Shown piece after piece: positions 35,334 to 54,503 of a stretch of DNA of 64,000 bases. Position 1 is the first letter of the stretch. Every line of letters begins with the position of its first letter. The notes under the pieces were generated by a model, which saw only the letters and a program-made list of their open reading frames with translations, was not told where the DNA came from and ran no database searches. The stretch spans positions 3,232,001-3,296,000 of the forward strand of contig OZ242358.1 of assembly GCA_965208835.1 (NCBI GenBank), given 5' to 3'. The position numbers were made by a program, and so were the translations under genes. This stretch comes from Candidatus Latescibacterota bacterium. Lineage in GTDB: Bacteria > Latescibacterota > UBA2968 > GCA-2709665.

Positions 35334-35494
35334 ATGTCCGATATGAAATATACGCCATTCGTAATCGCGTCACGCGTTAAATCCATTTAGCGATATCAAT
35401 ATCGGGACAACGTGAATCCAAAGCACAAAGGCAAGGATCTTGTCGTTGACATTGAATCCCGTGAATATGTCATCAATCACTGCAATCCAAGGTA
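35334..35494 (+). pseudogene. Decayed small gene (DUF5678-like / putative antitoxin-type family)
   Basis: MSDMKYTPFVIASRVKSI*RYQYRDNVNPKHKGKDLVVDIESREYVI resembles the recalled pattern IYxxxIRxxVEPxHKGKFLVIDIETGDYEI; internal TAG. Confidence 0.4.
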
Positions 35495-35765
35495 ATTTGA
35501 TAAAGACGATTTTGGCCAGGTGTGAGCAAACATGTCGTTCAGCAGGCGAGACCCGCGTTCGGGACCCGTGATTCTCGCATCTACCGTCCTACGGGAGTCT
35601 ATGCCGTCAGTCTCAGGATCGGTCAGAGGAATGAACGACCCTTAAATCTATTCCAATCAGGAATAGATGCCGGCGGCGTCAGATGAATCCTGAATCGGTC
35701 CATCATCGAGCCGACGCAACCCCGGTGTGCATGCTGAAATTGTCGTATAAGGTACATGTCCGATG

Positions 35766-36491
35766 TCAGTTTTGTAATGTCGATCGATGAAAGTACCAAA
35801 TGTTCGGTTCACGGTATGTGCCCAGATTCTCTTCCTGGTCGATCGTGATTGGCGCCAGACCGTCTGGAATGCAGTAGGATCCCGACGTTGAGAATCGCAT
35901 TCCCGTCCATTTCTCCCAGTCCTGGTTCGATGCAGTCACCGTAAGCGATTTGTGCATGAAACCCAGTCTTTCGCCACCCATTTCCTCGTGGACACGCAAC
36001 CACGGATCCAGCAGACGACCTTTGTCATCCCGGCGTTCGGCATACGCTTCGATTGAAGCTTCCGCGAACTCGTGTTTCCGATTCGGCCTTACGGGGGCCA
36101 GGAAGCCCCGCAATCCCTTCGCTGTCGACAGAGATCGCATTTCGGAAAGGATCTTTCGACTAATTCCCCTTCTGCGATACATCGGCCGCACGAGAACGCC
36201 CAGAGCACTGAGTACACCTGCAGTCTTTACCGGCCAACGGGCCGAATAGACCATCTCGTCGATCGTCGAAGGCAAGGGATCGCCTGGCACCCATTCAAAC
36301 GGTACGGTCAAGCCCGCAGCCACCAGGGCACTGTGTTCGAGAACGAGGATCTGAAAGCCCTGAAACTTCGTGTAAATGGAAGACCAGTTCCGAATATCCG
36401 CGCGCAACAGAAACTCGGGCCACGTGGAATCATTGAGTTCTTTCAAGGCGCCAGACATTTCGGGCATTCGGTCAAGTGTGACCAGATCCAT
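35766..36491 (-). CDS. GNAT-fold acyltransferase
   Basis: VRPMYRRRGIS, LAPVRP, DPWLRVHEEMGG. Confidence 0.85.
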   Translation of the reverse strand: MDLVTLDRMPEMSGALKELNDSTWPEFLLRADIRNWSSIYTKFQGFQILVLEHSALVAAGLTVPFEWVPGDPLPSTIDEMVYSARWPVKTAGVLSALGVLVRPMYRRRGISRKILSEMRSLSTAKGLRGFLAPVRPNRKHEFAEASIEAYAERRDDKGRLLDPWLRVHEEMGGERLGFMHKSLTVTASNQDWEKWTGMRFSTSGSYCIPDGLAPITIDQEENLGTYREPNIWYFHRSTLQN

Positions 36492-36576
36492 CTACTTGAT
36501 CCAATTGGAAAGGAAGGTAGCGACGGCGCGGGTTCATGCGCTGATGTGCACGGGTGAAAGTTCAACGCTGATGTTC

Positions 36577-37041
36577 TTACGTATCCATCAATTCCATTCG
36601 GACGAATTCGAACTCCCCGCCATTCGTCCGGTTCATATAATGTTCGACCTCCCTGAAACCAATTCGTTGATAAACCTTGATCGCGCGCGTGTTGAATGCC
36701 GCAACGTGAAGCTGGATGGTCTTCGGCGAGAATCGAGACTGCGCGAAGTCCAGGCCTGCGCGCACGAAATCTGACCCTGAGCCCTTCCCCGTCAGGTCCG
36801 GACGAAGTCCCAGACCGTAATCCACCGCGCCACCCGTGATCTGGAACGCGAAAAACCCGATCAATTCGCCTGCGCCGTCCCGAACGCCGAACATCGAGTC
36901 GCCGCGAAGCGCGGGATCCAGAAGCTCCGCCAGATCGTCGGCATCCGCCTCGGCATCGTAGAATGCATACTCGCCATCGTAATGCCAGGTGGCAATTGTC
37001 TCGGCGTCCGATTGAGTCAGTGGTTCTATGTGGAACTGCAC
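36577..37041 (-). CDS. GNAT acetyltransferase (RimJ/RimL-like)
   Basis: GTG start 37041 with GGAG; WHYDGEYAFYD, GLGLRPDLTGKG, VAAFNTRAIKVYQRIGF. Confidence 0.9.
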   Translation of the reverse strand: MQFHIEPLTQSDAETIATWHYDGEYAFYDAEADADDLAELLDPALRGDSMFGVRDGAGELIGFFAFQITGGAVDYGLGLRPDLTGKGSGSDFVRAGLDFAQSRFSPKTIQLHVAAFNTRAIKVYQRIGFREVEHYMNRTNGGEFEFVRMELMDT

Positions 37042-37073
37042 CGGATGTACTCCATTGATCTTCGATCTGGCGT

Positions 37074-37544
37074 TCAGTCCGTTGTCGCCTGCCGACGGCG
37101 CAGACGCTCCAGGCTCTCCCGAGACCACACTTCGTTCCTGTCGTATCCCTTTTCAAATTGTGGAACATCCGCCGGCAACTTGAGCCAGGCATGCTTGTCC
37201 ACCGTCCAGATGTGTGCGCCGATCTCAAGCATCCTGATGTCATCCAGCGTTCTCGAGTTTAGAAGCGCCGTTTCAGGGTGATTCGTGGCAGTCCTGTAAA
37301 TGACATCACCGCAGGACTTGCAGATGAATTCCGTTCGTTGCGTCGATATCTTCCTGAACGAAACGTCGCCCTGATTGATCACGATGTCGCTTTCCAGGAC
37401 GATGGTTGTAATCCGGAAGGCGGAACCGGACGCTTTCTGGCAATCGAGGCAGTGACATGCGTGTACGAAAAGGGGCGGGTACCGGAGCCCGTATCGGACC
37501 TCTCCGCAACCGCAGCCGCCTGAGAACCGGGAGCACTTATTCAT
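37074..37544 (-). CDS. GFA family protein (CENP-V-like)
   Basis: GGCGCGEVRY, CHCLDCQKASG, CKSCG, AHIW. Confidence 0.92.
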   Translation of the reverse strand: MNKCSRFSGGCGCGEVRYGLRYPPLFVHACHCLDCQKASGSAFRITTIVLESDIVINQGDVSFRKISTQRTEFICKSCGDVIYRTATNHPETALLNSRTLDDIRMLEIGAHIWTVDKHAWLKLPADVPQFEKGYDRNEVWSRESLERLRRRQATTD

Positions 37545-38505
37545 CGATTTCTCCAACCGCCTTGCCGAATTGGACGTCGGTTGAGCTCGCATTGAAATAG
37601 CTCCTCAACCGGGAAAATGCTTCGCTTTTGTATTCATTGGGGAAACTGTGCCCGCATTTCTGTACGGCAAGATACAGATGATCGGACAAACCCTTTGGTT
37701 CGTAGAACTCCCTTCTGGCCTCGTCGAAATATCCACTAATCTGCTCGATCATCTCGGGGGTCTTGTCCAGAGATTGCAGCACCGTCATCAGATAGCGCGG
37801 CGCAATTGGCAGAAGGTTCTTCTTTGTGACCCGCCCCGTTACAAGCCCCGCCTTGACGCGCGGATCGCGAGCCATCGTACTGGCAGCCTGCGCCGAACCC
37901 ATGGAGTGACCGATCACGCCAATGCGTTCAGAATCCACAAAGTCCAGTGCTGAAAGAACATCGACCGCGCGCATTCCATCGTACGCGTGTTTGAACCAGA
38001 AAGGCCGGCCCAGTGGCTCGTTCAAAATCTGATGACAGTGCTTGTTCTCATAGGGATGCCTGATTTCAGGAATATTACGCTCGCCGCAATTTATCGCATC
38101 AGGCGCCAGAACGACAAACCCTTGAATAACAAGCTCATAGCCATAGGCCTGATCGGGGCGTTGGACGGCCTTCCCGACAACGGCATCTTTTGCAATAATG
38201 CAATCGGTGTTGCACTGATGAAAGGCAACCATTGCCGGGTAAGGTGGTGAGAATCGCTCATCTTTGGGGACCAGAAGGTATGCCGGGATGCTTCTTCCCG
38301 ACAACTGAGGCATCGTTTCTTCGGTCTCAACGCGATAATCTATCTTCCATTCTTCGTAAACGTGATCACGATCGGACCTATAGTGCTTGTCCAGAACCTG
38401 AACGTCGAGCGGAGGAGGAACAGGATATTCAGCCACTTCCTCCTCAATTTGCCTTATGAAGTGTTCACGTTCCTGTCTGATGGACATGATCATGAATTCG
38501 CTCAA
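37537..38505 (-). CDS. Alpha/beta hydrolase (dienelactone hydrolase / acetylxylan esterase-like)
   Basis: PAYLLVP, GFVVLAPD, VDSERIGVIGHSMG. Confidence 0.88.
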   Translation of the reverse strand: MSEFMIMSIRQEREHFIRQIEEEVAEYPVPPPLDVQVLDKHYRSDRDHVYEEWKIDYRVETEETMPQLSGRSIPAYLLVPKDERFSPPYPAMVAFHQCNTDCIIAKDAVVGKAVQRPDQAYGYELVIQGFVVLAPDAINCGERNIPEIRHPYENKHCHQILNEPLGRPFWFKHAYDGMRAVDVLSALDFVDSERIGVIGHSMGSAQAASTMARDPRVKAGLVTGRVTKKNLLPIAPRYLMTVLQSLDKTPEMIEQISGYFDEARREFYEPKGLSDHLYLAVQKCGHSFPNEYKSEAFSRLRSYFNASSTDVQFGKAVGEIDE

Positions 38506-40632: not shown

Positions 40633-40668
40633 TCACTTCGTGCCACATTCTATCGATTGGACCATTCC

Positions 40669-41943
40669 ATGGACACGCTTCCGTTACCCGCCCGTCCCAA
40701 TCATGCAGATTACTTGAAGCTGGCGGAGGAACTCGTCGAGGCCGCCCGGTCGGAGAATGCCAACGCCTTACAGGAGTGGTGCGGCGGGTGGCTCGAGTCG
40801 ATCGTCCGAAGCTCCGGACCGGACCTGACGGACTTTGTGCGGGGAAGTTGGGAACGGGCGATAGGCGAAGTCGAAAAAGGCGCCCGCGAGACGTCGGAGA
40901 CGGCCAAGGAAGGTGGCGCCGGGTTTGAACTGGCCGATGCGCTGGCTCTTGTTGCGCATGCCCACAGCTTTGGGGATTGGGATGCTTTCGCCAGGTTTGT
41001 CGACGAGGACACGCGTCAGACGCCGGAGGGGGCCGAGTTCGAGGTCGCGGCCGACGCCGTGGTCGACGGGGACCTCGCCAGGCTCAAGGCGCTCCTGCGG
41101 CGCAATCCGGCTTTAGCCCACGCCAGATCGGCGCGCATTCACCACACGACGCTGCTGTATTACCTCGCCGCCAACGGCATCGAGGACTTTCGCCAGCGGT
41201 CGCCCGCCAATGCGCCCGAAATCGCGCGGCTATTGCTGGATGCCGGCGCGGAGGTGGACGCCCTGTGCGGGCTGGGCAATTCGGATGACACGCCGATGTT
41301 GGCGCTCGTAACCAGCGTACATCCGCACTATATGGGTGTGGCGACCGACCTGATTGAGATATTCGTGGAGGCGGGTTCGAAAGTGGATGGCCTCAACGGG
41401 GACGGGGCGCCGGTACGTCTTGCCCTAAAATTCGGATATCCCGAATCGGCAGCGGCACTGGTGCGCCTGGGGGCGGAGGTAAAAACTGTCGCGATGGCCG
41501 CGGGACTGGGCCGGTTGGATCTGACGAAGGAATTCGTCGAGGAACGCGGCGCATCCGAGGCGGATCTGGCGGCCGCGTTTGAAGATGCCTGCCGGTTCGG
41601 CCGGACGGATATTGCCGAATACCTGCTGGCAAACGGCGTCGACGTGGACGGTCAGGGCACGTGGAATATGACGGGCCTGATGTGGGCTGCTTCCCAGGGA
41701 CATCTCGACACCATGGCCCTGATCCTCGATCGCGGCCCATCGCTCGAATTGCGGAACGAGTTCGGTGGCACCGCATTGGGCACGACCCTGCATTTCGCGA
41801 TTAACTCGCCGGGACCCGGGGCTGACTATCCGGCCGTGATCGACATGCTGCTGAACGCTGGATTGAAGTTCGAGGGAACCAGGAAGGGAACGGGGCTAGA
41901 CGATATCGACGCCGTGCTTCGCAGACACGGCAAGGTCGATTAG
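40669..41943 (+). CDS. Ankyrin repeat protein
   Basis: Repeated GD/LLDAGAEVD, TGLMWAASQGHLD, GGTALG ankyrin-type units. Confidence 0.88.
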   Translation: MDTLPLPARPNHADYLKLAEELVEAARSENANALQEWCGGWLESIVRSSGPDLTDFVRGSWERAIGEVEKGARETSETAKEGGAGFELADALALVAHAHSFGDWDAFARFVDEDTRQTPEGAEFEVAADAVVDGDLARLKALLRRNPALAHARSARIHHTTLLYYLAANGIEDFRQRSPANAPEIARLLLDAGAEVDALCGLGNSDDTPMLALVTSVHPHYMGVATDLIEIFVEAGSKVDGLNGDGAPVRLALKFGYPESAAALVRLGAEVKTVAMAAGLGRLDLTKEFVEERGASEADLAAAFEDACRFGRTDIAEYLLANGVDVDGQGTWNMTGLMWAASQGHLDTMALILDRGPSLELRNEFGGTALGTTLHFAINSPGPGADYPAVIDMLLNAGLKFEGTRKGTGLDDIDAVLRRHGKVD

Positions 41944-41981
41944 AGCGGTAATCGTCTCAGCGGCAAAACAGGAAGGAAATC

Positions 41982-42012
41982 AAGGCGCTGCCATCACGGC
42001 TGCGCCTTTTTT
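41982..42012 (+). terminator. Rho-independent terminator
   Basis: AAGGCGCTGCC / GGCTGCGCCTT stem (one mismatch) followed by T run. Confidence 0.7.
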
Positions 42013-42030
42013 ACATTGCGAACGATTTGC

Positions 42031-42059
42031 TTGACAACACGCACGTAATACTTTATGCT
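42031..42059 (+). promoter_or_regulatory. Sigma-70 promoter of the four-gene ATPase/helicase operon
   Basis: TTGACA-N17-TATGCT. Confidence 0.75.
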
Positions 42060-42197
42060 GAATGAAACAGCCACCACGGGGCAACTTCGGCTACATTCAT
42101 CACATAGGAACAGGAACATGCTCCCGTGACGGCCGTGTTCGCACCGTCATTAATCACTCCGCTGATTCGTCAGATCTTCCGAAAACAGGAAAAATAC

Positions 42198-42998
42198 ATG
42201 GACAGCATCGGACAAGCATTTGAAGACACCGAGAACGCAGCTGAATCAGCACGCCAATCCGCTACCAAACTCGTGAATTTGACCAGACGCCTGCAAAAGG
42301 CCGCCAAGGAGGGCAACGTAGGCGCAATCAAAAAGGCACGAGTCGGACTCAATCTTGCGATTGAGAACCTGACGCAAGTGGTGACGGACGCTATCCAGTC
42401 GTGGCCCTATGGAGATGATGAGGTAGCCGAATACCTCAAGGGCGGCTATACGCACGAGTTGCGTCGTGTCGCGTTAGAAAGAGGTCTGGAAATCCATTTG
42501 CGGGACGGACAGTTGATCTCACACCCATCCATCGTGCGGATTTCGCCTGAGGATGAGGCGGTCCGTATTGACAACAAGAAAATCTCGACGATAAAGCCTT
42601 CCTACCTGGCCGATCTGCTGGCCGCGAACCAGAAGAAGGGCAGTCGCTTCTCGGCTAAACGGTTTTTGGAAGCCCTGCACAGGGTTTACCTTGAGCTTGT
42701 GAAGGAAGATGCTTCGGATGGACTCATGAAGGGTGGTTCAGGGCGTGTGGTACTCTTGGCAAGAATCTACAGGTTATTCACGTCTCTGCCCGGTAGCGGG
42801 CGAGATTATGCACAAATTGACTTTGCCCGGGACCTTTACCAGTTGGAGACAAGTGGAATTACAGAAACGACGTCAGGCGCCAGAGTATTTTTCCACGCGT
42901 CCACGGGCACCCGGGGCGGCAGAAACGTATTCACCTTTGTGGGTCCACAGGGCCAGGACATCAAGTACTTCGGGATTCGATTTACGAAGGATGACTGA
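42198..42998 (+). CDS. Hypothetical protein (N-terminal coiled coil; first gene of candidate defence operon)
   Basis: AGGA before ATG 42198; stop overlaps next start (TGATG). Confidence 0.8.
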   Translation: MDSIGQAFEDTENAAESARQSATKLVNLTRRLQKAAKEGNVGAIKKARVGLNLAIENLTQVVTDAIQSWPYGDDEVAEYLKGGYTHELRRVALERGLEIHLRDGQLISHPSIVRISPEDEAVRIDNKKISTIKPSYLADLLAANQKKGSRFSAKRFLEALHRVYLELVKEDASDGLMKGGSGRVVLLARIYRLFTSLPGSGRDYAQIDFARDLYQLETSGITETTSGARVFFHASTGTRGGRNVFTFVGPQGQDIKYFGIRFTKDD

Positions 42999-43966
42999 TG
43001 CAAAACACAATCTCCATCTCTCTCAAGGACTGGCTTCAAGTCATTAACGAAGAGTACCTTTCGTCGTATGTCCGCTTTGGGGGCGCGTCGATCAAGTTCG
43101 TAGTGCCATCAAACGAGGGTTCCGAGGCTGGTTTGTACGAAGAAACGGAGGCCAGCTGCCATGAGCTGGATTACATCTTCATTAGACTGAACGCTGAGGC
43201 GATGCGGGCGCACATGCCGCAGGACTTCTTTTTCAGGTTTGCCAGCCAGGTCGATTGGCGGCTGCTGGCTCGCCGGATGATCCTGAGGCTCGCCGCCGAG
43301 CAGGGCTACCAGATTGACGGAATACGTCCCGACGTGGACGGCAACGTCTTCGACGCCATCGCAACAGCCAATGGTCTCGAATCAGAGTTCGTTCTTGGAA
43401 ACCTCAGGCTGATGATACAGAACCGTGTCTTCAGGAACACCAAGATGGCGAGAGATTTCCGGGTGTGTATGAGCCATCTTTGCATGGAAGAGAACAGCCG
43501 TGGCGGATACATGGGGGAGCCGCTATTGAATTGGCTAACGGGAGAGAACACGCGAATTAGTGGTGTCCGTCCGTTTTCCATCTACACCAGTATCAATCGC
43601 AACACGGCCAGATATTTCATTGAATCGGCCTTCTATTGGATTCATCATGTGGGGCACTCCGGAACGCTAGTGTTGTTTGACAACTCCCGCGTAACAGTAG
43701 CAAGAAATCCGAGAGACGGTCTGCGCTACTACACGAGAGCCATGGCAATGGAACACTACGAGTTACTACGGGAATTTATCGACGGCGCTGACAGGTTGAC
43801 GAGCACGGTACTGCTGGTTGTAACCAACAGCGATTTCCTCGACGACAGTGGCGATCGCGGATCTCGAGGCTATGGGATATATGAGGCCCTGCGCACCCGA
43901 GTGATGGACGACGTTAGAGATAGGAACAGGGTAAATCCGGTCGCATCCCTGGTACGGCTGTCATAG
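42998..43966 (+). CDS. DUF2791/BrxD-like ATPase-fold protein with degenerate Walker motifs
   Basis: EEYLSSYVRFGGASIKFVV, LLNWLTGE, GTLVLFDN, YELLREFID, GIYEALRTRV; no GxxGxGKT. Confidence 0.75.
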   Translation: MQNTISISLKDWLQVINEEYLSSYVRFGGASIKFVVPSNEGSEAGLYEETEASCHELDYIFIRLNAEAMRAHMPQDFFFRFASQVDWRLLARRMILRLAAEQGYQIDGIRPDVDGNVFDAIATANGLESEFVLGNLRLMIQNRVFRNTKMARDFRVCMSHLCMEENSRGGYMGEPLLNWLTGENTRISGVRPFSIYTSINRNTARYFIESAFYWIHHVGHSGTLVLFDNSRVTVARNPRDGLRYYTRAMAMEHYELLREFIDGADRLTSTVLLVVTNSDFLDDSGDRGSRGYGIYEALRTRVMDDVRDRNRVNPVASLVRLS

Positions 43967-43980
43967 GGAGGTGGAAGGCA

Positions 43981-45249
43981 GTGGCGGTTTTAACCGATAA
44001 ACAGAAATTCGCCTCCAGGCGGGCCTTGGAGGCTCTCCGAAACGGCGTGCCTAACAGGGACGCAGTGAAACTATTGGGCTGTAACCAGCCGGAGGCTGAA
44101 GGTCAATTCGAAGGTATGTTGACCGGGGCTACGGAAGGCGTCGACCCTTCGTCCGGCACTTTGGGTATGCTGGTCTCCGGTGATTTCGGTTCCGGCAAGT
44201 CTCACCTGCTTACTCACCTGGAGGATCGGGCCCTTTCGCAGGGTTTCGTCTGTAGCAAGGTGACCATAAGCAAAGAGACGCCGCTATACGACCTGGGTAA
44301 GGTATTTAAGTCGGCAGTGGATAACGCTCAGATGCCTGACCGGACCGGCCGGTTGATGGAGGAACTAGGACAGGCGCTGAAGCCCGATTCACAGGAATAC
44401 GCCGGCTTCTTTAAGTGGTCAAACGACACCGGCTCTAACGGGTTGAGCCAGATGTTCCCGGCCAGCCTGCTTGTTCACGAACGGTCGCACGACCTTGAGC
44501 TGAACAGCGAGATCGAGAACTTCTGGGCGGGCGACAGAATCTACATTTCCCGCGTCAAGAATGGCCTGAGACAGATAGGGCAAAAGCAGAGTTACTCGTT
44601 CCGAGCGCCCAAAGCCGCCGACCTGCCACCCCAGCGTCTCCGTTTCGCCGTCCAGCTGATAAGGGCAGCAGGTTTCAGGGGCTGGGTGGTACTGCTGGAC
44701 GAGATCGAACTCGTGGGTTCGTACTCTCTCCTGCAGCGGGGAAGGTCTTACGCCGAGTTGGCTCGTTGGCTGGGACAGGCGGCCGGCGGGACATATCCTG
44801 GGCTGAGAACCGTGGGTTCCGTCACCGACGATTTTGCTTCCGCAATTATCACGGATGGAAAGAAAGACCGCGACTACGTGGGGCCAAAGATGGATAGTAC
44901 GGAACGTTACCAAAGATTGAAGGCAGACGCCGATATTGGTATGAAGTTGCTCGTACGAGAGTGTTCCCCGCTGAATCAACCAACAGACGTTGACATTCAA
45001 CTGACCATGAAGAATCTAAGGAGACTCTACACCGACGCCTACGGCTGGGATGCTCCACCGGTACCCGTAAGGGCCGGTGGCGCAGGGTATCAGAACCGGA
45101 TGCGCTACAAGGTCCGCGCCGCCATTAACGAATGGGATTTGATGCGGCGCTATCCCGACTACCAACCCAATACGGAGGGCGAGGAGTTTCGACACGACTA
45201 TTCAGAGAACGCCGACCTCGAACGAGAGTCCCGGGACGACACTGATTAG
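43981..45249 (+). CDS. DUF2791/BrxD-like P-loop ATPase
   Basis: ALEALRNGVP, Walker A GDFGSGKSH, ISKETPL, Walker B GWVVLLDEIE; GGAGG RBS. Confidence 0.88.
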   Translation: MAVLTDKQKFASRRALEALRNGVPNRDAVKLLGCNQPEAEGQFEGMLTGATEGVDPSSGTLGMLVSGDFGSGKSHLLTHLEDRALSQGFVCSKVTISKETPLYDLGKVFKSAVDNAQMPDRTGRLMEELGQALKPDSQEYAGFFKWSNDTGSNGLSQMFPASLLVHERSHDLELNSEIENFWAGDRIYISRVKNGLRQIGQKQSYSFRAPKAADLPPQRLRFAVQLIRAAGFRGWVVLLDEIELVGSYSLLQRGRSYAELARWLGQAAGGTYPGLRTVGSVTDDFASAIITDGKKDRDYVGPKMDSTERYQRLKADADIGMKLLVRECSPLNQPTDVDIQLTMKNLRRLYTDAYGWDAPPVPVRAGGAGYQNRMRYKVRAAINEWDLMRRYPDYQPNTEGEEFRHDYSENADLERESRDDTD

Positions 45250-45284
45250 AACGGGACCATTTCTCCTTCCTGGGGTAAACTGAA

Positions 45285-47390
45285 TTGCCGGGTACTTTAA
45301 ATGAACTGAAACCGGTGAAGGCGAAGTCCGTGACGGTGGCATGGCTGCGGTTCCTGGAAGAAAAGGGAGGTACCGGCATACGTGCGGCGCTGTTCCAGAC
45401 ATCGGCGCAAGGTGAACCGATGGATTTCTGCTTCACCCGAAGGGTATGGTCGGGTTCGGTTGGACAACCCACTATCGACAAGCCGGGTTTTATACAATCG
45501 CTGGCAGAATCACTACTCAGAACCGTCACCTTTGTGCCAACGTTGATACTCGTTCGGGCCGATGAAGTACCTCACGGATCAATCAATGAAGAAATAAAGG
45601 TACCGTTTTGCCGAATTGCAGTTTCCAGTGTTCGACACAATCGCGAATCGGACGACACACATAATGGTCATCATCCGGATTGGGTTACGGAAAAACCCGA
45701 TCCAGATGCCGAAGCGAGCCAACTTCTCTTAGAGATACTGGATCGGGGCAATCCCACCGAACCATTCGAACGGGCGACTGCAGCATTGGACGTCGCCTTT
45801 GGCGACGATCGGATTCGTGCTGTCACCGACCTTTCAAGTCTGTCCGTTGTAGTGAGCTTGTCTCCACTCCCGGAACGCCCCGGATTTCCGGGCAGCGATT
45901 ACTCGGCAACTCGTGAGAATACCCACAGACCAAGTCCAAGCCCACCAACCGACGTCGTTCTGGCCAAACGTCTGTGGTCTGTTCTGGCCAACCCACCCGA
46001 TCATTCCCAAACGATCCCGTTGCATTGGGCTGGAGATTTGATGCCCTTCCAGCAGCAGGGTGTCCAGGCATTGCTGGAAAACCGCCGGCTATTGTTGGCC
46101 GACGACATGGGATTGGGTAAAACCGTACAGGCAATCACAGCCTTACGGATTCTCCGGGCACGTCGAGAATTCAAATCGTGTTTGATAACGGCTCCCGCAA
46201 GCGTGCTAAATCAGTGGCGACGCGAACTCGAAAAATGGGCGCCTGAGCTTTCCGCGATCATCATCCGTGGTTCGGTATCGGACCGCAGGTGGCAGTGGAG
46301 TGCCGATAAAGAGATAACACTCGTGAGTTACGATACCCTTAGGTCCGACTTCAGCACCCAATCTCTGGTCGGTCGCAAGAACTGGGACGTGGTCGTAGCG
46401 GACGAGGCTCAGAGGATCAAAAACCGCAACGATACGAGCGATGCCCTTAAGAGGTTGAAAAGAAATCGCTCCTGGGCTCTGACCGGTACCCCTATGGAAA
46501 ATCGCGAGGAGGAGTTGGCTTCGATACTGGAGTTTGTTGATTATGACTCCACCGGAGTGACAAAACGGTACCGTCCAGGTGTGGAATTGCAGAGACGTCA
46601 CCGTGAGTTGCAGGTTCGACGCAAGAAAACGGAGGTTTTAAGGGATCTTCCTGTAAAGCAAATCACGAAGGTCGACATTGAGTTGGGCTCTCGCCAACGC
46701 GAGAGCTACGATAAGGCCGAACAGGAAGGCATCGTCTACCTGAAGTCTCTTGGCGCGGAAGTCAACGTGCGGCACGTGCTTGAGCTTATCACTCGATTGA
46801 AACAAATCTGCAACGCCGACCCCAAAACCGGTGAATCCAGCAAATTGGCAGACATCACGGACCGCGTGGACCAACTTGCAGCACAGGGACACAAGGCGCT
46901 AATCTTCTCGCAGTACGTGAGTGAGACATCCGGCGTGGGAGCCGTGGCCAACCACATGCGGGATTTCGTTCCGCTTACCATCACTGGAGACTTGCCTCTC
47001 CAGGAGCGGGCCGAGATCATCGAAAGATTCAAAACCAGCAGCGAACACAAAGTGTTGGTGCTGTCGTTGCGGGCAGGCGGTCTTGGATTGAACTTGCAGG
47101 AGGCGTCCTATGTAATTCACCTGGACCGTTGGTGGAACCCCGCCGTCGAAAGTCAAGCCGAAGACCGAAGCCACCGCGTCGGCCAGACGGTCAAAGTCAA
47201 CGTCATCAAGTATTCCTGCGTTGGTACCATTGAGGAGCGCATTGACGACATTCTTGAGAACAAACGGGAACTGTTTAACCAACTCATCGACGATGTGTCG
47301 ATGGATCTGTCCACCCAGCTGAACAGTGAAGAACTTTTCGGGCTGTTCGGACTAGAACGGCCGCTCGTCGCGGATCGAAGGGATTGTTAA
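45285..47390 (+). CDS. SNF2-family helicase/ATPase with additional N-terminal domain
   Basis: LADDMGLGKT, DEAQRIKN, ALTGTPMEN, LIFSQY, AGGLGLNLQEA, WWNPAVESQAEDRSHRVGQ; start uncertain. Confidence 0.95.
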   Translation: MPGTLNELKPVKAKSVTVAWLRFLEEKGGTGIRAALFQTSAQGEPMDFCFTRRVWSGSVGQPTIDKPGFIQSLAESLLRTVTFVPTLILVRADEVPHGSINEEIKVPFCRIAVSSVRHNRESDDTHNGHHPDWVTEKPDPDAEASQLLLEILDRGNPTEPFERATAALDVAFGDDRIRAVTDLSSLSVVVSLSPLPERPGFPGSDYSATRENTHRPSPSPPTDVVLAKRLWSVLANPPDHSQTIPLHWAGDLMPFQQQGVQALLENRRLLLADDMGLGKTVQAITALRILRARREFKSCLITAPASVLNQWRRELEKWAPELSAIIIRGSVSDRRWQWSADKEITLVSYDTLRSDFSTQSLVGRKNWDVVVADEAQRIKNRNDTSDALKRLKRNRSWALTGTPMENREEELASILEFVDYDSTGVTKRYRPGVELQRRHRELQVRRKKTEVLRDLPVKQITKVDIELGSRQRESYDKAEQEGIVYLKSLGAEVNVRHVLELITRLKQICNADPKTGESSKLADITDRVDQLAAQGHKALIFSQYVSETSGVGAVANHMRDFVPLTITGDLPLQERAEIIERFKTSSEHKVLVLSLRAGGLGLNLQEASYVIHLDRWWNPAVESQAEDRSHRVGQTVKVNVIKYSCVGTIEERIDDILENKRELFNQLIDDVSMDLSTQLNSEELFGLFGLERPLVADRRDC

Positions 47391-47711
47391 CCAGACGGAT
47401 GCACGCTTGAATAGCCTCGACCAAGGTTAGCGCGATAAATTGTCGTAGATTCGGTGGCTTTTGGGAATCCAGATTACATGCATGATCACGGTTGGCACGT
47501 TCATTTTGATCAAAACTCTGAACGAGCTTGGATAGCCCTTACGACAGCTTTCCGATTCTGCCAGCATAGACCCGCGACAATAAAGAAGCCTGCTCCGCAG
47601 GCTCAGGGCGATGCCAAGGAAACGCTTACGACCAGCTCAGGTCGACGCCCGGTGAGCCCTTGGATCGACGCAATTTGTCTTTACACGATGTGCGAAATCC
47701 ACGCTATCGAA

Positions 47712-48701
47712 TCATAGGGCACGCGCCTCAAAGTCTAGCAAATCACCACCGAACTTCAGGAAAAATGCAGCAAATTCGGACCCTGTCAACATCGTAACCG
47801 CCTTGCCTGTGTCTTCTTGAAGCTTGTCCAATTCCTGCCTGAAGTTTTCGCCCGGGATCGTCCCCGTTGAGACGATCAGTCCCTGATTTGCGTGTTCATA
47901 TTGCTGAAACGCTCTTCTGATATCTTCGATCGCGCGCGTATTGTGAATCTCCCCTTCGAAGGATTTGACCTGAACAACCAACGTATCTCGGTGAACCAAT
48001 CCTGGGATGGAACCGAATTCAAAATCCACTATCAAACCGGCCCCGTGATCACGAGCGCCTCCCTGTCGTTTCACACCCCGAACGCCAGGAACGCTTTGAA
48101 AAACCTTCTCTACCAGAGGCTCGAGTTCCCTGTTTGGATGTGTGCGGCTGATTTTATGTGAGATATCTTCGAGAAGTGGTTGAATCTGCTCCGAAAGATA
48201 TGCCAGGCTTGTCTCAGACGTTCTCGGCGCTGGTGCCTCTGTTTCTAGGGCTTCCAATAGCCGCCTGAAATCATCCTCCACGTGTATCGTCCACCACCGC
48301 CCCTGTAGTTTTAGACGGGCGCTCAAGGCGGGCGTCACCCTAGCGTCGTTCCGATTAAAGGAGCGTACCGATTCCGGGCAGACGTCGAATCGATGATTGA
48401 AATCATCGTCCCCGCCAACCCAATGGTACTCACCTGTCACCCTTGCCACAGTGCATTCACCCCACACAGGAAGATTGATATAGACAACATAATCGCCTTC
48501 TTCCATCCTCAAAAGAAACTCCTGGTAACAGTTCTTCTCATCATCGCTGAGCGAATCCCATCCCGATTCTTCGATCCTGTTCTTCAACTCCCTTAGATCG
48601 GCATTTACGTAGCTCCAGCCAAATCGACCCTTGCCACGCGTCAACGAGTCAAATATGCGTTCGTTCCAGTCCTCGGTGGCTTTGAGCGCGTAGATCGTCA
48701 T
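47712..48701 (-). CDS. Mrr-like restriction endonuclease domain protein
   Basis: C-terminal ELEPLVEKVF...DHGAGLIV...VVQVKS...GLIVST pattern; N-terminal GRFGWS / GDYVV domain; GAGGAG RBS. Confidence 0.75.
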   Translation of the reverse strand: MTIYALKATEDWNERIFDSLTRGKGRFGWSYVNADLRELKNRIEESGWDSLSDDEKNCYQEFLLRMEEGDYVVYINLPVWGECTVARVTGEYHWVGGDDDFNHRFDVCPESVRSFNRNDARVTPALSARLKLQGRWWTIHVEDDFRRLLEALETEAPAPRTSETSLAYLSEQIQPLLEDISHKISRTHPNRELEPLVEKVFQSVPGVRGVKRQGGARDHGAGLIVDFEFGSIPGLVHRDTLVVQVKSFEGEIHNTRAIEDIRRAFQQYEHANQGLIVSTGTIPGENFRQELDKLQEDTGKAVTMLTGSEFAAFFLKFGGDLLDFEARAL

Positions 48702-48984
48702 CTGTCTCTCTCCTCTGCAATTGGATTCATCGTTTCACATCAAAGTAGCCATGCTGCGGCTGGACCATCGTCTTCGGTTCTGTCCTACGTATTTCACCGG
48801 TTTATTAGTGGCCGGTTACGATGGGGTGGTGAACGTGTTGGCATCGCTTTCTCCCAGTTGGGAAGTTAAACTGAAATCCGGCTTGAAGTCAGACCCGTCC
48901 CGCGGATTTCGGCCACCGTGACCATCTGCCGTGCCTGAATGTACGTATTATGTGCGATCGCACCTACGCATACTCATATAAATC

Positions 48985-49000
48985 TGCAAAAAACGTGCCA
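48985..49000 (-). promoter_or_regulatory. Sigma-54 promoter
   Basis: Minus strand TGGCAC-GTTTT-TTGCA, a perfect consensus match, facing the Mrr-like gene. Confidence 0.65.
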
Positions 49001-49660
49001 TTTTTTTTCGGATTAAATGTTGAATATAAGGGAGTTAGGATATGAACTGTCAGTTTCTGTCAGGTGAAAGACGCCGAAAACACGCCATTGGAGGGGTTAG
49101 CACAAATATTCGCCATGCCAGTCATCATCAGCCTGGAAACTCAAAAACGACTTGCAGAGCCAACTCTAAGAAGCCACCGGAAGTGTTGTAATTTGCAACG
49201 TGGCGGGAGACTCGCGGAGAGTATTCGTGGGTGGGTTTAATGGATCGCGGGCAGGAAAGATGGAGAGGTATTCCAGGCCGAAGCCGAGGAAGGGCTTACC
49301 AAGTGGGCCGGGCGAATACGGACGTATCGATCGACACCACATCTTCATCGGGACCCTGCTTGGGCAGGTCCGGAAAATTGGGCTGGACTCCGGCTTACTT
49401 CACGACATTTTGTCTAGGTGTCGGCACTGATGCATCCATAATCGTTCGCCCTATTCATTGTAGCTTAATTTAAGAAGAGGAACTGTCTCATTGAGATGGG
49501 CACAGAGCGATCACTCGTGTGGGATGAATCAATCTAATATCAGTTTGTTTTTTGACGACTTGCAACTTCCATTCCTTTTCATCCGTCAGAGCGAGTCGGG
49601 TTCAATGAGCAATGGCATCATGTGGTGGCGCCCAACTGATCTCCGGACATTGTCCCGCGT

Positions 49661-49804
49661 TGCAGGAGATCCTTCGTCAGCCTAGCGCCTGCCTGTCGGC
49701 AGACAGGGCTTCCTCAGAATGACAGCTCACGTACACGTATCTCAGAGACATTTCATTGAGGGTCGTGGGACGCCATGTCACTCTTAGCGTAGTCGAAGAA
49801 TCTC
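49661..49804. repeat. Direct repeat A flanking GNAT gene (REP-like)
   Basis: GATCCTTCGTCAGCC...ATGACAGCTCACGTACACGTATCTCxGAGACATTTCATTGAGGGxCGTGGGACG shared with 50579-50714. Confidence 0.8.
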
Positions 49805-49958
49805 CCGTCTACTCGATTGAACGTGCGCCGGAAGCATTCATCAGCCTATTTGCGCGGACGCTTCCTCAGCAAAACACTGTGCGCGCGTGTTCGACACCCC
49901 CACCTCATCAGCCGTCGCCTGCGCCTTATACACTTCGGCAAGTTCAATGCAGGCAGGC

Positions 49959-50474
49959 TTAGGTACCCGGCGCGGGTTCCCGCGCCTTCAGGTCGACTTT
50001 GTAGAGTGGCAGTTCGCGTCCCGGAACGCTCTCGGAAGATCTGGTACCAATCTTCCTGGCGCCCATTGCAAGATAGAACCCGTCGGCATGCGGGTCGCCC
50101 TGAATAAGCATCGTCCTGAATTCCAGGTTGGATGCTGTTGATACGGCATGTCGCAAGAGACGTCCGCCATATCCACGTCCGATTTCATCCGGCTCTACAA
50201 AGAGAAACGTCAACTCGACTTCACTTATGGTTGGCGGTTGGAGCATATAAAATCCTACAATGCGTCCCGAATCGTCGATCACATACGCAGGATTGTGCGA
50301 CAATTCTACATCTGAGACCGTCAACTCTTTCTCGCAGGCCGAAAGGAATGATTCGTCATACCCCCAGAATCCCTTGGACCTGCGTGCCAGAGCGGTGAGT
50401 TCGGACCCTTCACCCTGTCTGGCGCGACGAATTATACCACGGTCAATTCGTGTTTCACGACTCGTCATATCCAC
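49959..50474 (-). CDS. GNAT acetyltransferase
   Basis: RSKGFWGY, LFVEPDEIGRGYG, DPHADGFYLAMGA. Confidence 0.92.
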   Translation of the reverse strand: MDMTSRETRIDRGIIRRARQGEGSELTALARRSKGFWGYDESFLSACEKELTVSDVELSHNPAYVIDDSGRIVGFYMLQPPTISEVELTFLFVEPDEIGRGYGGRLLRHAVSTASNLEFRTMLIQGDPHADGFYLAMGARKIGTRSSESVPGRELPLYKVDLKAREPAPGT

Positions 50475-50578
50475 TGAAACCCGATAAATCTGCCGGACCC
50501 AATGCCCCGACTAAAGGGAGACCCTGTGCTGCCCATCAGGTGACGGCGGTCGGCTGGCCCGTGGAAATCATCACATGC

Positions 50579-50714
50579 TGCAGGTGATCCTTCGTCAGCC
50601 AGACGGCACCCTTCGACAGACTCAGGGCAAGTCCTTAGGATGACAGCTCACGTACACGTATCTCGGAGACATTTCATTGAGGGCCGTGGGACGACATGTC
50701 CTTCTGAGCGTAGT
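50579..50714. repeat. Direct repeat B flanking GNAT gene (REP-like)
   Basis: Homolog of 49661-49804. Confidence 0.8.
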
Positions 50715-50741
50715 TGTGCCGAGTGCATCGTGGGACCGGTA

Positions 50742-51125
50742 CTACTGCTGCATAATCTGTATTAGATTTCCGCAGGTATCGTCAAAGACGGCCATGATGA
50801 TGTTCTCCCACTCTGTCGGCTCCATTGTAAACCTCACACCGAGCGCGCTTAATCGCTCATGCTCTGCGCGAATGTCGTCCACGCCGAAGCAGGTCGCGGC
50901 AATGCCCTGTTCGAATATCCCTTTCTGATATGTCTTCGCGACCGGATTCTCGTTCGGCTCGAGCAGAAGCTCGGTCCCTTCCTGGTCGTCGGGCGAAACG
51001 ACCGTGATCCACCTGTGTTCCCCAACCGGAACGTCATGTTTTTTTTCGAAACCGAGTATCTGGGTATAGAACTTCAGCGCTTTGTCCTGATCTTCAACAA
51101 AAACGCCACTCAGTATGATTTTCAT
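50742..51125 (-). CDS. VOC/glyoxalase family protein
   Basis: Start ATG 51125; VEDQDKALKFYTQILGF, FDDTCGNLIQI. Confidence 0.93.
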   Translation of the reverse strand: MKIILSGVFVEDQDKALKFYTQILGFEKKHDVPVGEHRWITVVSPDDQEGTELLLEPNENPVAKTYQKGIFEQGIAATCFGVDDIRAEHERLSALGVRFTMEPTEWENIIMAVFDDTCGNLIQIMQQ

Positions 51126-51204
51126 CGTGATTTCGCCCCTTTCAGTTTTGAGATTCAGGTTTGGGTAACAAGAACAAATCTGTTGAATTTCTCTGCGATA
51201 ATAC

Positions 51205-52005
51205 TCATGCAGCCATGAATCTCGCAAACGTACATCCTTTCGGATGGCAATAATTGTACCTGAAGTACGACTTGAAACCGATCTTCCGGTAGACCGGCTC
51301 ACCCATCACGGACGCCTGCAGGACGGCAATCCTGTACCCCATCTGACGGGCGTCCTCCATTGGCGCAAGCGTCATCGCGGTTCCGATTCCCCGCCTCCGA
51401 TGTTCCGGGAAAACCTCCACCTGATACAGCCCGGCAACGCCCGAAGAGAGAAACATCATCGAAGTACCGATCGCTTCGCCGTCGATCTTCCCCAGATAGA
51501 GCCTCACTTCCGGCGATTCCATGAGAACTTTGAACATATCGAATTCGAACAGAGGAAAAAATGACAGCCATTCGCGGAGCCCTTCGTCATCGCCTACACG
51601 TTCTATTCTGAGGTCGACCGGGCATGGACGCTCCTCACCCGCCCCATCCAATCGGATCGCCATCCCAGGCGGATCGTGGTCCATCGCCACGAACCCGTTG
51701 CTCACCAGATGCGTCCTCAGGTCCTTCGGCTCTGATTCCGGACCGAATTTCAGGAGTGGTGGTAGCCTCCTCTGCTCTATACCGGCACGGATCTCATGGA
51801 TTCCGCTTTCCAGGTTCTCTTCCCTGAACCGCGGTTCGACCAGATAGTTCGGCCACCACGGCTTACCGATAACGCCGGTGAAATCTTTCTCCCGCAATAT
51901 GGTCTTACCACCCCTTTCCGCGGCGAAGAGGAAAAGATCGATGTTGTTCCGCTCAATCGCCGTTGTGACGGCAGGGTCCGAATGGTCTTCCAAGACAGAA
52001 AACAT
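51205..52005 (-). CDS. GNAT acetyltransferase
   Basis: VAGLYQVEVFPEHRRRGIG, LQASVMGEPVYRKIGF. Confidence 0.9.
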   Translation of the reverse strand: MFSVLEDHSDPAVTTAIERNNIDLFLFAAERGGKTILREKDFTGVIGKPWWPNYLVEPRFREENLESGIHEIRAGIEQRRLPPLLKFGPESEPKDLRTHLVSNGFVAMDHDPPGMAIRLDGAGEERPCPVDLRIERVGDDEGLREWLSFFPLFEFDMFKVLMESPEVRLYLGKIDGEAIGTSMMFLSSGVAGLYQVEVFPEHRRRGIGTAMTLAPMEDARQMGYRIAVLQASVMGEPVYRKIGFKSYFRYNYCHPKGCTFARFMAA

Positions 52006-52015
52006 CTACAGGTCC

Positions 52016-52609
52016 TCAGCGTTTGATTTCGCCGCGGAGTTTCGACAGCAAAGCCCTGTCGACGTCGGGAAACGTACACAAATCTGATAGCAAGGTCTCG
52101 ACATTCTCAACGGAATAATCCAGCCCCGCCCGACCCAGTTTCTCGCAGGCGCTGAACATGTAGTGATTGGCATCGTCCTCGCCCCGCCTGGCTCGCTTTA
52201 CCGCCCATACGACGTTCCAGAACGCGGACGTGGCGACAGACCAGTCCGGGAACGGCGAAGGCCATTTCTGAGAAGCCTCCAGGTCAGACTTGATATACAG
52301 ATCTATCCTCCAGAATACAGGATAGTCGTGAAAATTGACCCGGACGTTCTGCGCCATCCGGTCGTTTTTCTGCTGAGGATCGTACCGCAATGAGAACGCG
52401 CCGAAACGTCCTTCCAGGCACGCCGCTAGAGAATCGAAAAACCCCTGCGTGAGCTCAACCTGAACGCTGGCTTCGAGATCCACGTCGCTGTATTGGTCGA
52501 CCTTCCCCGAGGCGAATGAACCGAAGAAGTTGACCGTTCCAGGAGAAAAATGCCTCCGAAGGACCTCTACGACTTCATTTCCGAATTGATGTATGGTCAT
52601 CTCGTACAC
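52016..52609 (-). CDS. Nucleotidyltransferase domain protein
   Basis: Pol-beta-type motif FGSFASGKVDQYSDVDL. Confidence 0.85.
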   Translation of the reverse strand: MYEMTIHQFGNEVVEVLRRHFSPGTVNFFGSFASGKVDQYSDVDLEASVQVELTQGFFDSLAACLEGRFGAFSLRYDPQQKNDRMAQNVRVNFHDYPVFWRIDLYIKSDLEASQKWPSPFPDWSVATSAFWNVVWAVKRARRGEDDANHYMFSACEKLGRAGLDYSVENVETLLSDLCTFPDVDRALLSKLRGEIKR

Positions 52610-52625
52610 GCATGTGTGGGATCGT

Positions 52626-53054
52626 TCAATCGATCCTTATTTCCGAACCTACTGTCAAAAGACTATCCATGTCTTCTTTCAAATGAGATGAGCCAAATTC
52701 GGGATTTCCGGGACTCAGAATATAGCAAGCAGACGTGACGTCCATGTTTTCGTGCATCGGAAAGACATGTGCGTGGGCGTGGGGCACGTCACTTCCAGCG
52801 TAGAGAAAAGCAACGCGTTCAACCCGATAGATTGCTTTCATTTTCCTTGCGAGTCTTTGACCAAGTTCCATTATTCTCGCTGCGAGGCCAGCAGGAACAT
52901 CGTCGAAGTACTCGAAGTGACGTCGTGGAATGATAAGGCAATGGCCTCTCCGTATGGGCCTGTTGCCAAGAAACGCTACGATATGGGAGTCCTCCCACAC
53001 GATCACCGCGTTCGCGTTTCCGGAGGCTATTTCGCAAAATGGACAAGCTCTCAC
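52626..53054 (-). CDS. HIT family protein
   Basis: GTG start 53054 with GAGG; CPFCEI, GHCLIIPRRH, VPHAHAHVFP. Confidence 0.92.
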   Translation of the reverse strand: MRACPFCEIASGNANAVIVWEDSHIVAFLGNRPIRRGHCLIIPRRHFEYFDDVPAGLAARIMELGQRLARKMKAIYRVERVAFLYAGSDVPHAHAHVFPMHENMDVTSACYILSPGNPEFGSSHLKEDMDSLLTVGSEIRID

Positions 53055-53213
53055 GTGGTCCTCGATTTCGCAGTTTCCTCGCGATGGAGGCTGGGCGGTT
53101 CCGACTCCTCTTGTCTGTCTCTGAGTGTTAAACGTTTGATAGTGATGTATATAGACATGGAAGTGTAATGGTGACACTGGAACGGCAATCGACAATTTTC
53201 GCTCTGGAAGGTT

Positions 53214-53627
53214 TCAAAGCCGTTGCTGTCGCTTGAGTTCAGGTAGAATGTAATTTCGCAAGATAGGGTTCAATTGATACTTGCCGGATTCAAGATCGGC
53301 CATAGACGCCCAGGCAATCTCGAGTACCTCGTCCTGGTCCGGAATCGGTTATCCATCAATGCCTGCCACATAAGCTCGAACTCTAACCGTGTGCCTCTCC
53401 TCGGTTTCCGGCAGGCAGACAATTCGCTCGTACTCGCCGAAGAATTCGGGATCCGTCGGCGCAATGCTGAGCTCTTCCTTGAGTTCTCTACGCAATGCAT
53501 CCAGGTCCGACTCTCCGCTCTCGAGCTTTCCGCCGGGCAGAAGGAAATCATGGACACTATCGCACTTCACGAGCAGGAGGCCATCACGTGTGATCAGAAT
53601 TCCTGAGATGCGGACGACAGTCTTCAT
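53214..53627 (-). pseudogene. NUDIX hydrolase with premature stop
   Basis: Nudix box PGGKLESGESDLDALRRELKEE; TAA at 53349-53351, then the same frame continues PIPDQDEVLEIAWAS...ILPELKRQQRL to TGA at 53214. Confidence 0.8.
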
Positions 53628-53717
53628 TCTTCCCTTTCGTACATCGTCAGTATCGAAACCTGGTGAGCGGTCCGGTTCTGCGCGTATTCACCGGTGGGAG
53701 ATTGCGAAGTCGTTTCG

Positions 53718-54503
53718 TTACTGACGTTTCAGGAGGAATATCATCTCGGGCATGTCCGGCCCGATTGGTTTCCGGTCAAAAGAACCGAATTCTCCCACGC
53801 TCTCGAGACCGGCCGCGAAGATTAGCGCTTTGAGATGTGGATAGGTATAGACGCTCATTTTGAAGTTCTCGGCTTCCTCCGACAGTACATGGTCGCCATC
53901 GCAGAGCCGGAAGATAAACCTGCCCGACAAAACCAGATTGACCGGGTCGTACCCGTCCTTCACGAAATACCGCCGAATGGTCCCGCCGGTGCCGTCCTGC
54001 GCGGGCCATTCCAGTTCCAGATGTTCTTCGCCATCGCCGGAAAGCAGCTTGTCGAACCGGGGATTGAACACATCCAACGCGAGAATTCCCCCATCCGTCA
54101 GGTGTCTCCCGGCATTCCTCAAGGCCGCCAGTTGGTCTTCTGCGGTGTACATATGCTGCAAGGGTCTGAACGGAATCACTACCAGGGGAAATACATCAGC
54201 CAATTGAAGGTTTCTGAAATCTCCCTCAATGACCCGTACCCGGGGTTGTACGTCCGCAGGTTCCTTCGCGAGCTTTGCCCGCAAGACCGCCAGCATCGAA
54301 CCAGAAGCATCAACGCCCGTGACATCAAGTCCCTGCCGGGCAAACGGTAGGGTAATCCTGCCGGTTCCGCAGCCGAGTTCGAGGATCGGCCCGCCATACT
54401 CACCGGCCAGATCGAGATAGAAGCCCCTGTCGACCAGGTCCTCCTTGACATTGTATGCGGCATCGTAATGCTTCGCTGCCAAGCGGTAGGAGTCTTCAGT
54501 CAT
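53718..54503 (-). CDS. Class I SAM-dependent methyltransferase
   Basis: ILELGCGTGR, GVDASGSML, HLTDGGILALD. Confidence 0.93.
   Translation of the reverse strand: MTEDSYRLAAKHYDAAYNVKEDLVDRGFYLDLAGEYGGPILELGCGTGRITLPFARQGLDVTGVDASGSMLAVLRAKLAKEPADVQPRVRVIEGDFRNLQLADVFPLVVIPFRPLQHMYTAEDQLAALRNAGRHLTDGGILALDVFNPRFDKLLSGDGEEHLELEWPAQDGTGGTIRRYFVKDGYDPVNLVLSGRFIFRLCDGDHVLSEEAENFKMSVYTYPHLKALIFAAGLESVGEFGSFDRKPIGPDMPEMIFLLKRQ

Follow-up and report, generated by a model that had tools for sequence, protein, structure and literature searches.

An accessory cassette joining a dead/live pair of BrxD-type proteins to an SNF2 helicase, a candidate defence system of Candidatus Latescibacterota and other phyla

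Among described bacterial defence systems, those closest to the locus analysed here couple an ATPase to a helicase. Shango is made up of the TerB protein SngA, the DUF2791-type ATPase SngB and the helicase SngC. Here, we describe a cassette of four genes, A to D, in a 64,000-nucleotide stretch (the window) of a Candidatus Latescibacterota bacterium (assembly GCA_965208835.1, contig OZ242358.1, positions 3,232,001-3,296,000, forward strand). It encodes an unnamed protein, two BrxD-like proteins and an SNF2 helicase, and is probably an undescribed DNA-targeting defence cassette against phages or plasmids, in which A and the B/C pair would control the SNF2 motor via D-N, the N-terminal module of protein D.

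A TerB protein is included in Shango in the consulted part of 10.1101/2022.05.11.491447. In the consulted sections of PMC12839542, BrxD is an ORC/Cdc6-type AAA+ ATPase linked as a dyad to the helicase BrxHI, which is classed as Ski2-like and which BrxD is proposed to load or activate; the same sections describe DUF499/Hma systems with SNF2-nuclease effectors and a helicase with TUDOR and inactive restriction endonuclease domains. ZorD is presented in the consulted part of PMC11946911 as an autoinhibited ATP-dependent nuclease effector, recruited by the ZorAB sensor, and HmaA, in that of PMC11232893, as an SNF2 helicase with a PD-(D/E)xK nuclease that defends against T4.

Gene order and encoded proteins

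The cassette and the domains of its last protein are located as follows.

42198-42998, + strand: gene A, 266 residues from its ATG, signature protein without a known family
42998-43966, + strand: gene B, 322 residues, BrxD-like without Walker A (predicted pseudo-ATPase)
43981-45249, + strand: gene C, 422 residues, BrxD/SngB-like P-loop ATPase
45285-47390, + strand: gene D, 701 residues, D-N module and SNF2 core
45285-45870, + strand: D-N module, residues 1 to about 195 of D, unnamed conserved domain
46008-47297, + strand: SNF2 helicase core, residues 242-671 of D, with no nuclease domain after it

Genes A-D (42198-47390) are a self-contained, tightly packed operon. Their four open reading frames (ORFs), all intact, fill 42.0-47.4 kb of the window; base 42998 is common to the stop codon of A and the ATG of B, and gaps of 14 and 35 nucleotides separate B from C and C from D. 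This agrees with the four tightly spaced or coupled genes of the original prediction, which had been made from the sequence of the window. An alternative start for A, the GTG at 42126, would give 290 residues; the ATG at 42198 gives the usual length of the family.

Relatives were gathered in two sets. The close set comes from 196 stretches with a relative of A in one-genome-per-species contigs, of which the best 80 were kept; for the distant set, metagenome contigs were scanned with a distant sub-alignment, giving at least 574 relatives, of which 80 loci were kept (individual loci are numbered with the prefix L). A, B and C are contiguous and in this order in all 79 close loci with room for them, and are found together in 36 of 36 such distant loci, where A is 31-38% identical to that of the window. 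An SNF2 gene follows them in 61 of 77 close and 21 of 25 distant loci with room, so the four-gene order is conserved. Seven of the close loci, from Candidatus Latescibacterota, are 81-91% identical to the window, while the others (47-62%) are assigned to Chloroflexota/Dehalococcoidia, Binatia, Vicinamibacterales, Entotheonella/Tectimicrobiota, Nitrospirales, Proteobacteria, Acidimicrobiales and other groups.

Protein C matches PF10923 (BrxC_BrxD; 5.4e-17) and the PADLOC model of BrxD (1e-14), and more weakly that of SngB (1.8e-4; 1.7e-11 for the C protein of the distant locus L097). Its Walker A (G-x-F-G-x-G-K-S) and Walker B (L-L-D-E) motifs are kept in 73 aligned sequences. In B, the PF10923 match (3.4e-7) covers residues 149-321, the last two thirds of the protein only; Walker A is absent from all 74 aligned close sequences, and the residue pair Asp-Asn stands where Walker B has Asp-Glu. 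The two proteins therefore form a dead/live pair and not a doubled enzyme. Judged from these motifs, B is a pseudo-ATPase, predicted to be unable to bind ATP normally, and C the predicted sole working ATPase. The same split, with Walker motifs in C and no Walker A in B, is present in ten distant loci, and B of L097 matches the PADLOC BrxD model over residues 22-316 (3e-9). Searches of the B and C profiles against the sequences of the PDB returned chance-level rows or none. Of the two DUF2791/BrxD-like ATPases originally proposed, C is thus retained, while B keeps a partial family match and loses the designation of ATPase.

The core of D (residues 242-671) matches PF00176 (1.1e-45) and Helicase_C (3.3e-19), as expected of the SNF2 helicase that the fourth gene had been taken to encode, and its motifs I (D-D-M-G-L-G-K-T) and II (D-E-A-Q) are kept in 46 aligned sequences. 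Its best PADLOC matches are ZorD (4.4e-84, core only), DpdE and DrmD. Of 23 distant loci, 22 have a stand-alone ORF of 168-206 residues that separates C from the helicase. Its profile aligns with residues 1-180 of D in the window (hhalign probability 99.8%, E 1.5e-27); the two are homologous, and D is therefore a fusion of D-N and the helicase. Among close loci, the two are fused in 52 and split in nine. D-N has no match in Pfam, PDB sequences or PADLOC, and in the ESM Atlas it finds unnamed clusters only. Fourteen of the 21 complete distant helicase ORFs have at least about 740 residues, with an Mrr_cat domain at the C terminus (PF04471, 2.3e-25 in L097); in L097 the PADLOC ZorD model is matched through both helicase and nuclease (4e-68). 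The cassette of the window is the fused, nuclease-less form of a five-gene cassette (A, B, C, D-N and SNF2), a form common to 52 loci of several phyla.

The missing Mrr domain, the fusion of D-N to the helicase and the occurrence of A-B-C-only forms in related loci would also suit a reduced, possibly functionless remnant of a five-gene, nuclease-bearing system in this lineage. Such decay is improbable, given that all four frames are intact, that the proteins are 81-91% identical in the seven congeneric loci, that the catalytic motifs are kept in C and D across the aligned sequences (73 and 46, respectively), and that the fused form without a nuclease is found in several phyla.

Gene A has no match in Pfam, PADLOC-DB 2.0.0 or NCBIfam. 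At E<=0.001, a word-indexed search gave 506 homologues; those listed, 120 in number, range from 257 to 303 residues, mostly 263-270, and have no Pfam domain and no name besides 'hypothetical protein'. By exhaustive profile search, the family comprises 793 clusters at 50% identity (E<=0.001), with 561 of them at E<=1e-10 and 240 at E<=1e-30. The AlphaFold2 model of A, calculated from 28 sequences, has a predicted local distance difference test score (pLDDT) of 86; in it, residues 4-67 make a long helical hairpin, which is followed by an alpha/beta part and by a C-terminal part of helices and strands. With the full-length model, Foldseek found nothing at E<=0.001; because a wide fold search was filled by the helical hairpin, residues 70-266 were refolded separately with AlphaFold2 (pLDDT 85). 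A fold search with this shorter model gave a run of weak winged-helix matches for the C-terminal half (Z 4.7-6.0), including RNA polymerase III, ESCRT-II, ORC/Cdc6/Cdt1, kleisin C-terminal domains and histone H1, and weak frataxin-like matches for the middle part (Z 5.9). As these Z values are within the range the tool calls common, a winged-helix-like C-terminal part is a lead from modelling, not a result. The most conserved motif across the family, (D/E)-F-A-R-D, is located in a helix of this part. Searches of the A profile against PDB sequences gave chance-level rows or none, and the ESM Atlas returned unnamed clusters only. Assignment of A as a PD-(D/E)xK nuclease is unsupported: MutH was the sole nuclease among the fold matches, with a Foldseek probability of 0.08, and an E...D...D-x-K pattern that the close clade conserves is not kept throughout the family at large.

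Two variants of the locus were seen in passing. In the metagenome loci L146, L148 and L149, the genes after A-B-C encode a prenyltransferase/TED-like alpha-alpha toroid protein and a 959-residue double ABC-type ATPase (mad3-like); they replace SNF2 and may be an alternative partner set. The locus at L130:2668-8248 is rearranged, with A and C followed by a 777-residue ORF that starts with a B-like region and continues with a second BrxD/SngB-like part.

Distribution, insertion and neighbourhoods

The cassette is accessory and has been transferred. Within its own phylum, A is present in 11 of 168 genomes, and within its own genus in eight of 14 other species; two single-contig congener genomes, 97% complete, are without the cassette. 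In a tree of C (FastTree, 73 rows, unrooted, built from bins that could hold misplaced contigs), phyla are nested within one another: Latescibacterota lie inside Chloroflexota beside a Dehalococcoidia row (support 99), one Nitrospirota row is paired with a row of Binatota (98) and another, L035, falls inside the group of Tectimicrobiota (100), Vicinamibacterales enclose a Gammaproteobacteria row (100), and a Thermodesulfobacteriota row lies inside Binatota (99). This topology points to transfer between phyla. The lineages to which most of the close clade (47-91% identity) is assigned, namely Latescibacterota, Dehalococcoidia, Binatia, Caldilineaceae, Vicinamibacterales, Entotheonella/Tectimicrobiota and Nitrospirales, may share one kind of host-associated marine habitat; if so, that would fit recent exchange within one community.

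Comparison with congeners delimits an insertion, for which the following features are needed.

41982-42013, + strand: terminator-like hairpin and T-run of the upstream ankyrin-repeat gene
42031-42059, + strand: sigma-70-like promoter candidate (TTGACA, 17 nucleotides, TATGCT; 10 of 12 positions match)
42010-49988, no strand: insertion with A-D, gene E and a 1.3-kb stretch free of long ORFs
47712-48701, - strand: gene E, 329 residues, convergent neighbour inside the insertion and outside the conserved cassette

The ankyrin-repeat gene (40657-41943) lies directly upstream of the cassette and ends in the hairpin and U-run; it is retained in four cassette-free congeners. Cassette-free congeners are syntenic with the window up to 42009-42011; this left edge of the insertion coincides with the end of the hairpin. 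Where the window has 7.98 kb between flanks 42009 and 49989, the cassette-free congeners L088, L089 and L090 have about 197 bp, which makes the segment in the window an insertion. In cassette-bearing congeners, homology stops at 47367-47534 and the sequence beyond differs; A-D are therefore the unit. In or at the insertion, we found no integrase or transposase, no tRNA gene and no repeat that convincingly flanks it; an Rfam scan of 41.5-50.5 kb gave one sub-threshold chance match, and no tRNA gene is present in the whole window.

Two regulatory and compositional features of the original prediction stand in part. An own promoter after a terminator had been proposed. The hairpin and U-run are sound (-17.7 kcal/mol, z -3.07, with 2 of 200 shuffles folding equally well), while the promoter at 42031-42059 is a plausible candidate without statistical support, because a scan of 7.2 kb found one such site against 3.9 expected from shuffles, a count not above chance. 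The cassette had also been described as visibly less GC-rich than its flanks. Its GC fraction is 0.545, against 0.571 for the window, and 18% of 118 windows of 5.2 kb do not exceed the value of the cassette; most of the contrast comes from the 3.5 kb upstream (0.615), the 10 kb downstream having 0.555.

Gene E, on which the cassette converges, had been read as an Mrr-like nuclease gene. The convergent arrangement is correct, and the Mrr-like label is unconfirmed: E has no Pfam match even at E<=10 and no Mrr_cat match, BLASTP against the Mrr domain of L097 returned nothing, and its sole match is to PADLOC PDC-S02 (1.7e-6). It recurs in one of 80 loci (L004), as a partial match, and is a neighbour of the cassette, not a component. 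Beyond E, positions 48702-49988 comprise about 1.3 kb without an ORF of at least 100 residues, AT-rich near 48940-49060 and with no Rfam match or tRNA. In the congener locus L004, a second copy of the 3' end of the ankyrin gene (L004:16308-16955, 83% identical to window 41357-42010) lies right after the island, which is thus bracketed by a 650-bp direct repeat. The wider flanks in the window (29204-38505 and 49959-54970) hold an unusual abundance of small accessory enzymes, with five GNAT acetyltransferases and nitrilase, HIT, MazG-like, glyoxalase and GFA proteins.

We inspected 26 neighbourhoods (12 close and 14 distant), picked for length and diversity and without a background control. Credible defence-type neighbours are present at four of the 12 close loci: SoFic (4.9e-44); HNH with PDC-S01 and PDC-S41; Schlafen-AlbA with HTH-M78; and PDC-S01. 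At seven of the 14 distant loci, the neighbours are of restriction-modification (RM), toxin-antitoxin (TA) or defence type: type I HsdS and HsdR; NERD-UvrD with a type III-like methylase and Res subunit; a type II enzyme (8.8e-106) with a methylase; MNT-HEPN with a Schlafen-AlbA protein; an AriA/PtuA-like ATPase; a helix-turn-helix protein with a Gp49 protein; and an Eco57I-type methylase. RM or defence neighbours at about 11 of the 26 sampled loci are suggestive of a defence association. Transposases adjoin four loci (L024, L050, L061 and L129), three of which are among the 12 close ones. The neighbourhoods vary between loci, with the cassette itself the only common part.

These surroundings bear on two other explanations. 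The cassette could be cargo that serves a mobile element, by rival exclusion or element stabilisation, rather than the host, as an 8-kb insertion with its own candidate promoter, the transposases at four of the 26 loci and the repeat of the left flank after the L004 island would allow. However, the insertion in the window lacks the integrase, transposase, tRNA gene or convincing flanking repeat of such an element, neighbourhoods differ from locus to locus around a shared cassette, and relatives of A were found neither among PLSDB plasmids and INPHARED phages (tblastn) nor among IMG/VR viral contigs (two scans), making an element-serving role doubtful at best.

A housekeeping DNA transaction is the second explanation, in which an ORC/Cdc6-like loader pair and a winged-helix partner would place SNF2 on the cell's own DNA, for clearing stalled complexes or for repair. 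The high conservation of the sequences across phyla, the housekeeping neighbours of many loci and the absence of a nuclease from the close clade would be in keeping with it, as would the top NCBIfam matches of D, the SCO1167 family and the pilus-regulating Snf2, which are non-defence SNF2 families, though both are far below their cut-offs. Against it stand the patchy occurrence even within one genus, with a clean indel, the transfer between phyla to which the tree points, the Mrr nuclease fused to the helicase in 14 of 21 distant loci, and the RM and TA genes adjoining several loci. We regard a housekeeping role as unlikely.

Proposed function

The favoured reading, a DNA-targeting defence cassette, draws on several lines of evidence. 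The cassette is accessory (eight of 14 congeners), forms a clean 8-kb indel and has a tree that mixes phyla (support 98-100 on five joins). An Mrr nuclease is carried by 14 of 21 distant helicases, and defence or RM genes adjoin four of 12 close and seven of 14 distant loci. The operon is tight, its order is kept across both sets despite the divergence of A, and the motifs of C are conserved. C and B match BrxD, and C matches SngB, both of which partner helicases in defence systems. D-N is homologous in fused and split forms, and A has no relative in the phage, plasmid and viral collections searched.

In the mechanism we propose, A, B and C would assemble on DNA into a complex for sensing or loading. 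By turning over ATP, with regulation by its partner B, C would then recruit or release the SNF2 motor via D-N, and the motor would translocate on foreign DNA, which Mrr-bearing versions may also cut. In the version of the window, with no nuclease in the cassette, the motor alone might interfere, or an unlinked nuclease might be used. More speculatively, and with a rather low probability, A-B-C may be a new ORC/Cdc6-like DNA-sensing loader, combining a live and a dead AAA+ protein with a winged helix supplied in trans, that places SNF2 on its target; nuclease-less forms would then strip or stall the machinery of the invader without degrading its DNA.

Several observations weigh against the predicted defence function. 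No methyltransferase or other visible means of discriminating self from non-self is present, and there is no Mrr domain or other recognisable effector in the window or in the 61 close helicase loci. A-B-C occurs without the helicase in 16 of 77 close loci (mostly Vicinamibacterales) and four of 25 distant ones; five D-less genomes hold no D orthologue elsewhere, their best SNF2 matches being 36-40% identical over the core only, with none in one genome, and no shared alternative effector was recognised among the genes after A-B-C in helicase-less loci. With 47-77% identity between phyla, the conservation of the proteins is unusually high for immune sensors. The fold matches of A are weak (Z up to 6), as is the direct comparison of B and C profiles (probability 7%, Walker B strand only). 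The flanks of the window (GNATs, hydrolases, a decarboxylase and metabolic genes) are not a defence island, and 15 of the 26 sampled loci have no defence neighbour, the counts not being a measured enrichment. The earlier claim of an undescribed defence system thus stands as to the unnamed gene set, its conserved order and the defence and RM neighbours elsewhere, and is tempered by the metabolic flanks here and by the inferred nature of defence.

The family is sizeable, with its 793 clusters, and mostly found in uncultured lineages poorly sampled by existing catalogues. A simple genetic handle on BrxD-type control of helicases, as in BREX and Shango, comes from the dead/live BrxD pair and from D-N as a separable module, and the nuclease-less form described here and the Mrr-bearing form provide a natural comparison.

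Comparison with described systems

The cassette has no system-level match in PADLOC-DB 2.0.0, NCBIfam or Pfam, and equivalog scores are far below the cut-offs. For the NCBIfam equivalog of BrxD (NF033438, cut-off 350 bits), C scores 54.7 and B 22.1. D scores 152.3 with that of ZorD (NF041790, cut-off 1500 bits), over the helicase core only, 82.7 and 70.3 with those of DrmD from DISARM (cut-offs 950 and 610 bits), and 75.6 with that of DpdE from Dpd (cut-off 500 bits). The literature on DUF2791, BrxD-like proteins, SNF2 and Shango, as far as it was covered (the supplementary tables of PMC12839542 excepted), holds no system with this gene set, and the consulted part of 10.1101/2025.09.30.679545 describes no BrxD or SNF2 system. 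The view of the combination as one that belongs to no named system is thereby upheld.

Since component models of type 2 BREX, Shango, Zorya, Hma/BR, DISARM or Dpd are the best library matches for C and D, a divergent member of one of these systems was considered. This is very improbable: every curated equivalog score is far below its cut-off, A and D-N match no model, and the cassette lacks genes for PglZ, PglX and TerB, as the original prediction had already reported, and for a methyltransferase. The rest of the genome argues in the same direction, lacking TerB, having PF10923 matches in B and C only, and holding its one clear PglZ-domain match (65 bits) 370 kb away, with a second, at the cut-off, about 1.3 Mb away. 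The clear match lies in an ORF with a frame of 534 residues, at 2905596-2906177 of this genome, with no BrxC/BrxD-type match near it.

The BrxD-BrxHI dyad of type 2 BREX (Pgl) likewise links a stand-alone BrxD-type ATPase tightly to a superfamily 2 helicase, and C and B match both PF10923 and the PADLOC BrxD model. The cassette differs in its SNF2 helicase, its dead/live ATPase pair and the extra, unnamed A and D-N, and PglZ, PglX and BrxC/PglY are absent from the cassette genes and window neighbours, and PglW from the cassette. Shango is likewise small and also unites a DUF2791-type ATPase and a helicase with an unknown or adaptor protein. Here, the helicase is SNF2 and not of the SngC type, with no SngC model among the 25 best of the 45 PADLOC matches of D; B and D-N are extra; A has no Pfam match, and TerB (PF05099) is absent from the genome, which is 97.8% complete.

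ZorD of type I Zorya is the best PADLOC match for the SNF2 core. The N-terminal halves differ, D-N being in the place of the N-terminal domain of ZorD, and the window's D has no nuclease domain. A Pfam scan of 26 neighbouring ORFs found no MotA/ExbB or OmpA-type pair that would correspond to ZorA/ZorB (ZorC was not searched for). Hma and type 1 BREX-related systems likewise combine an ORC/Cdc6-STAND-type ATPase with an SNF2 helicase, often fused to a PD-(D/E)xK nuclease, and D matches the HmaA model in part (4.3e-21). They have their own N6-methyltransferase, a DUF499 ATPase, TUDOR and an inactive restriction endonuclease, none of which is seen in the cassette; in the loci inspected, no DNA methyltransferase stands among the genes from A to the helicase. 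If protective, the cassette would join the type 2 BREX dyad, Shango, the Zorya effector and Hma/BR as a new named system among the defences that combine an ATPase with a helicase or helicase-nuclease.

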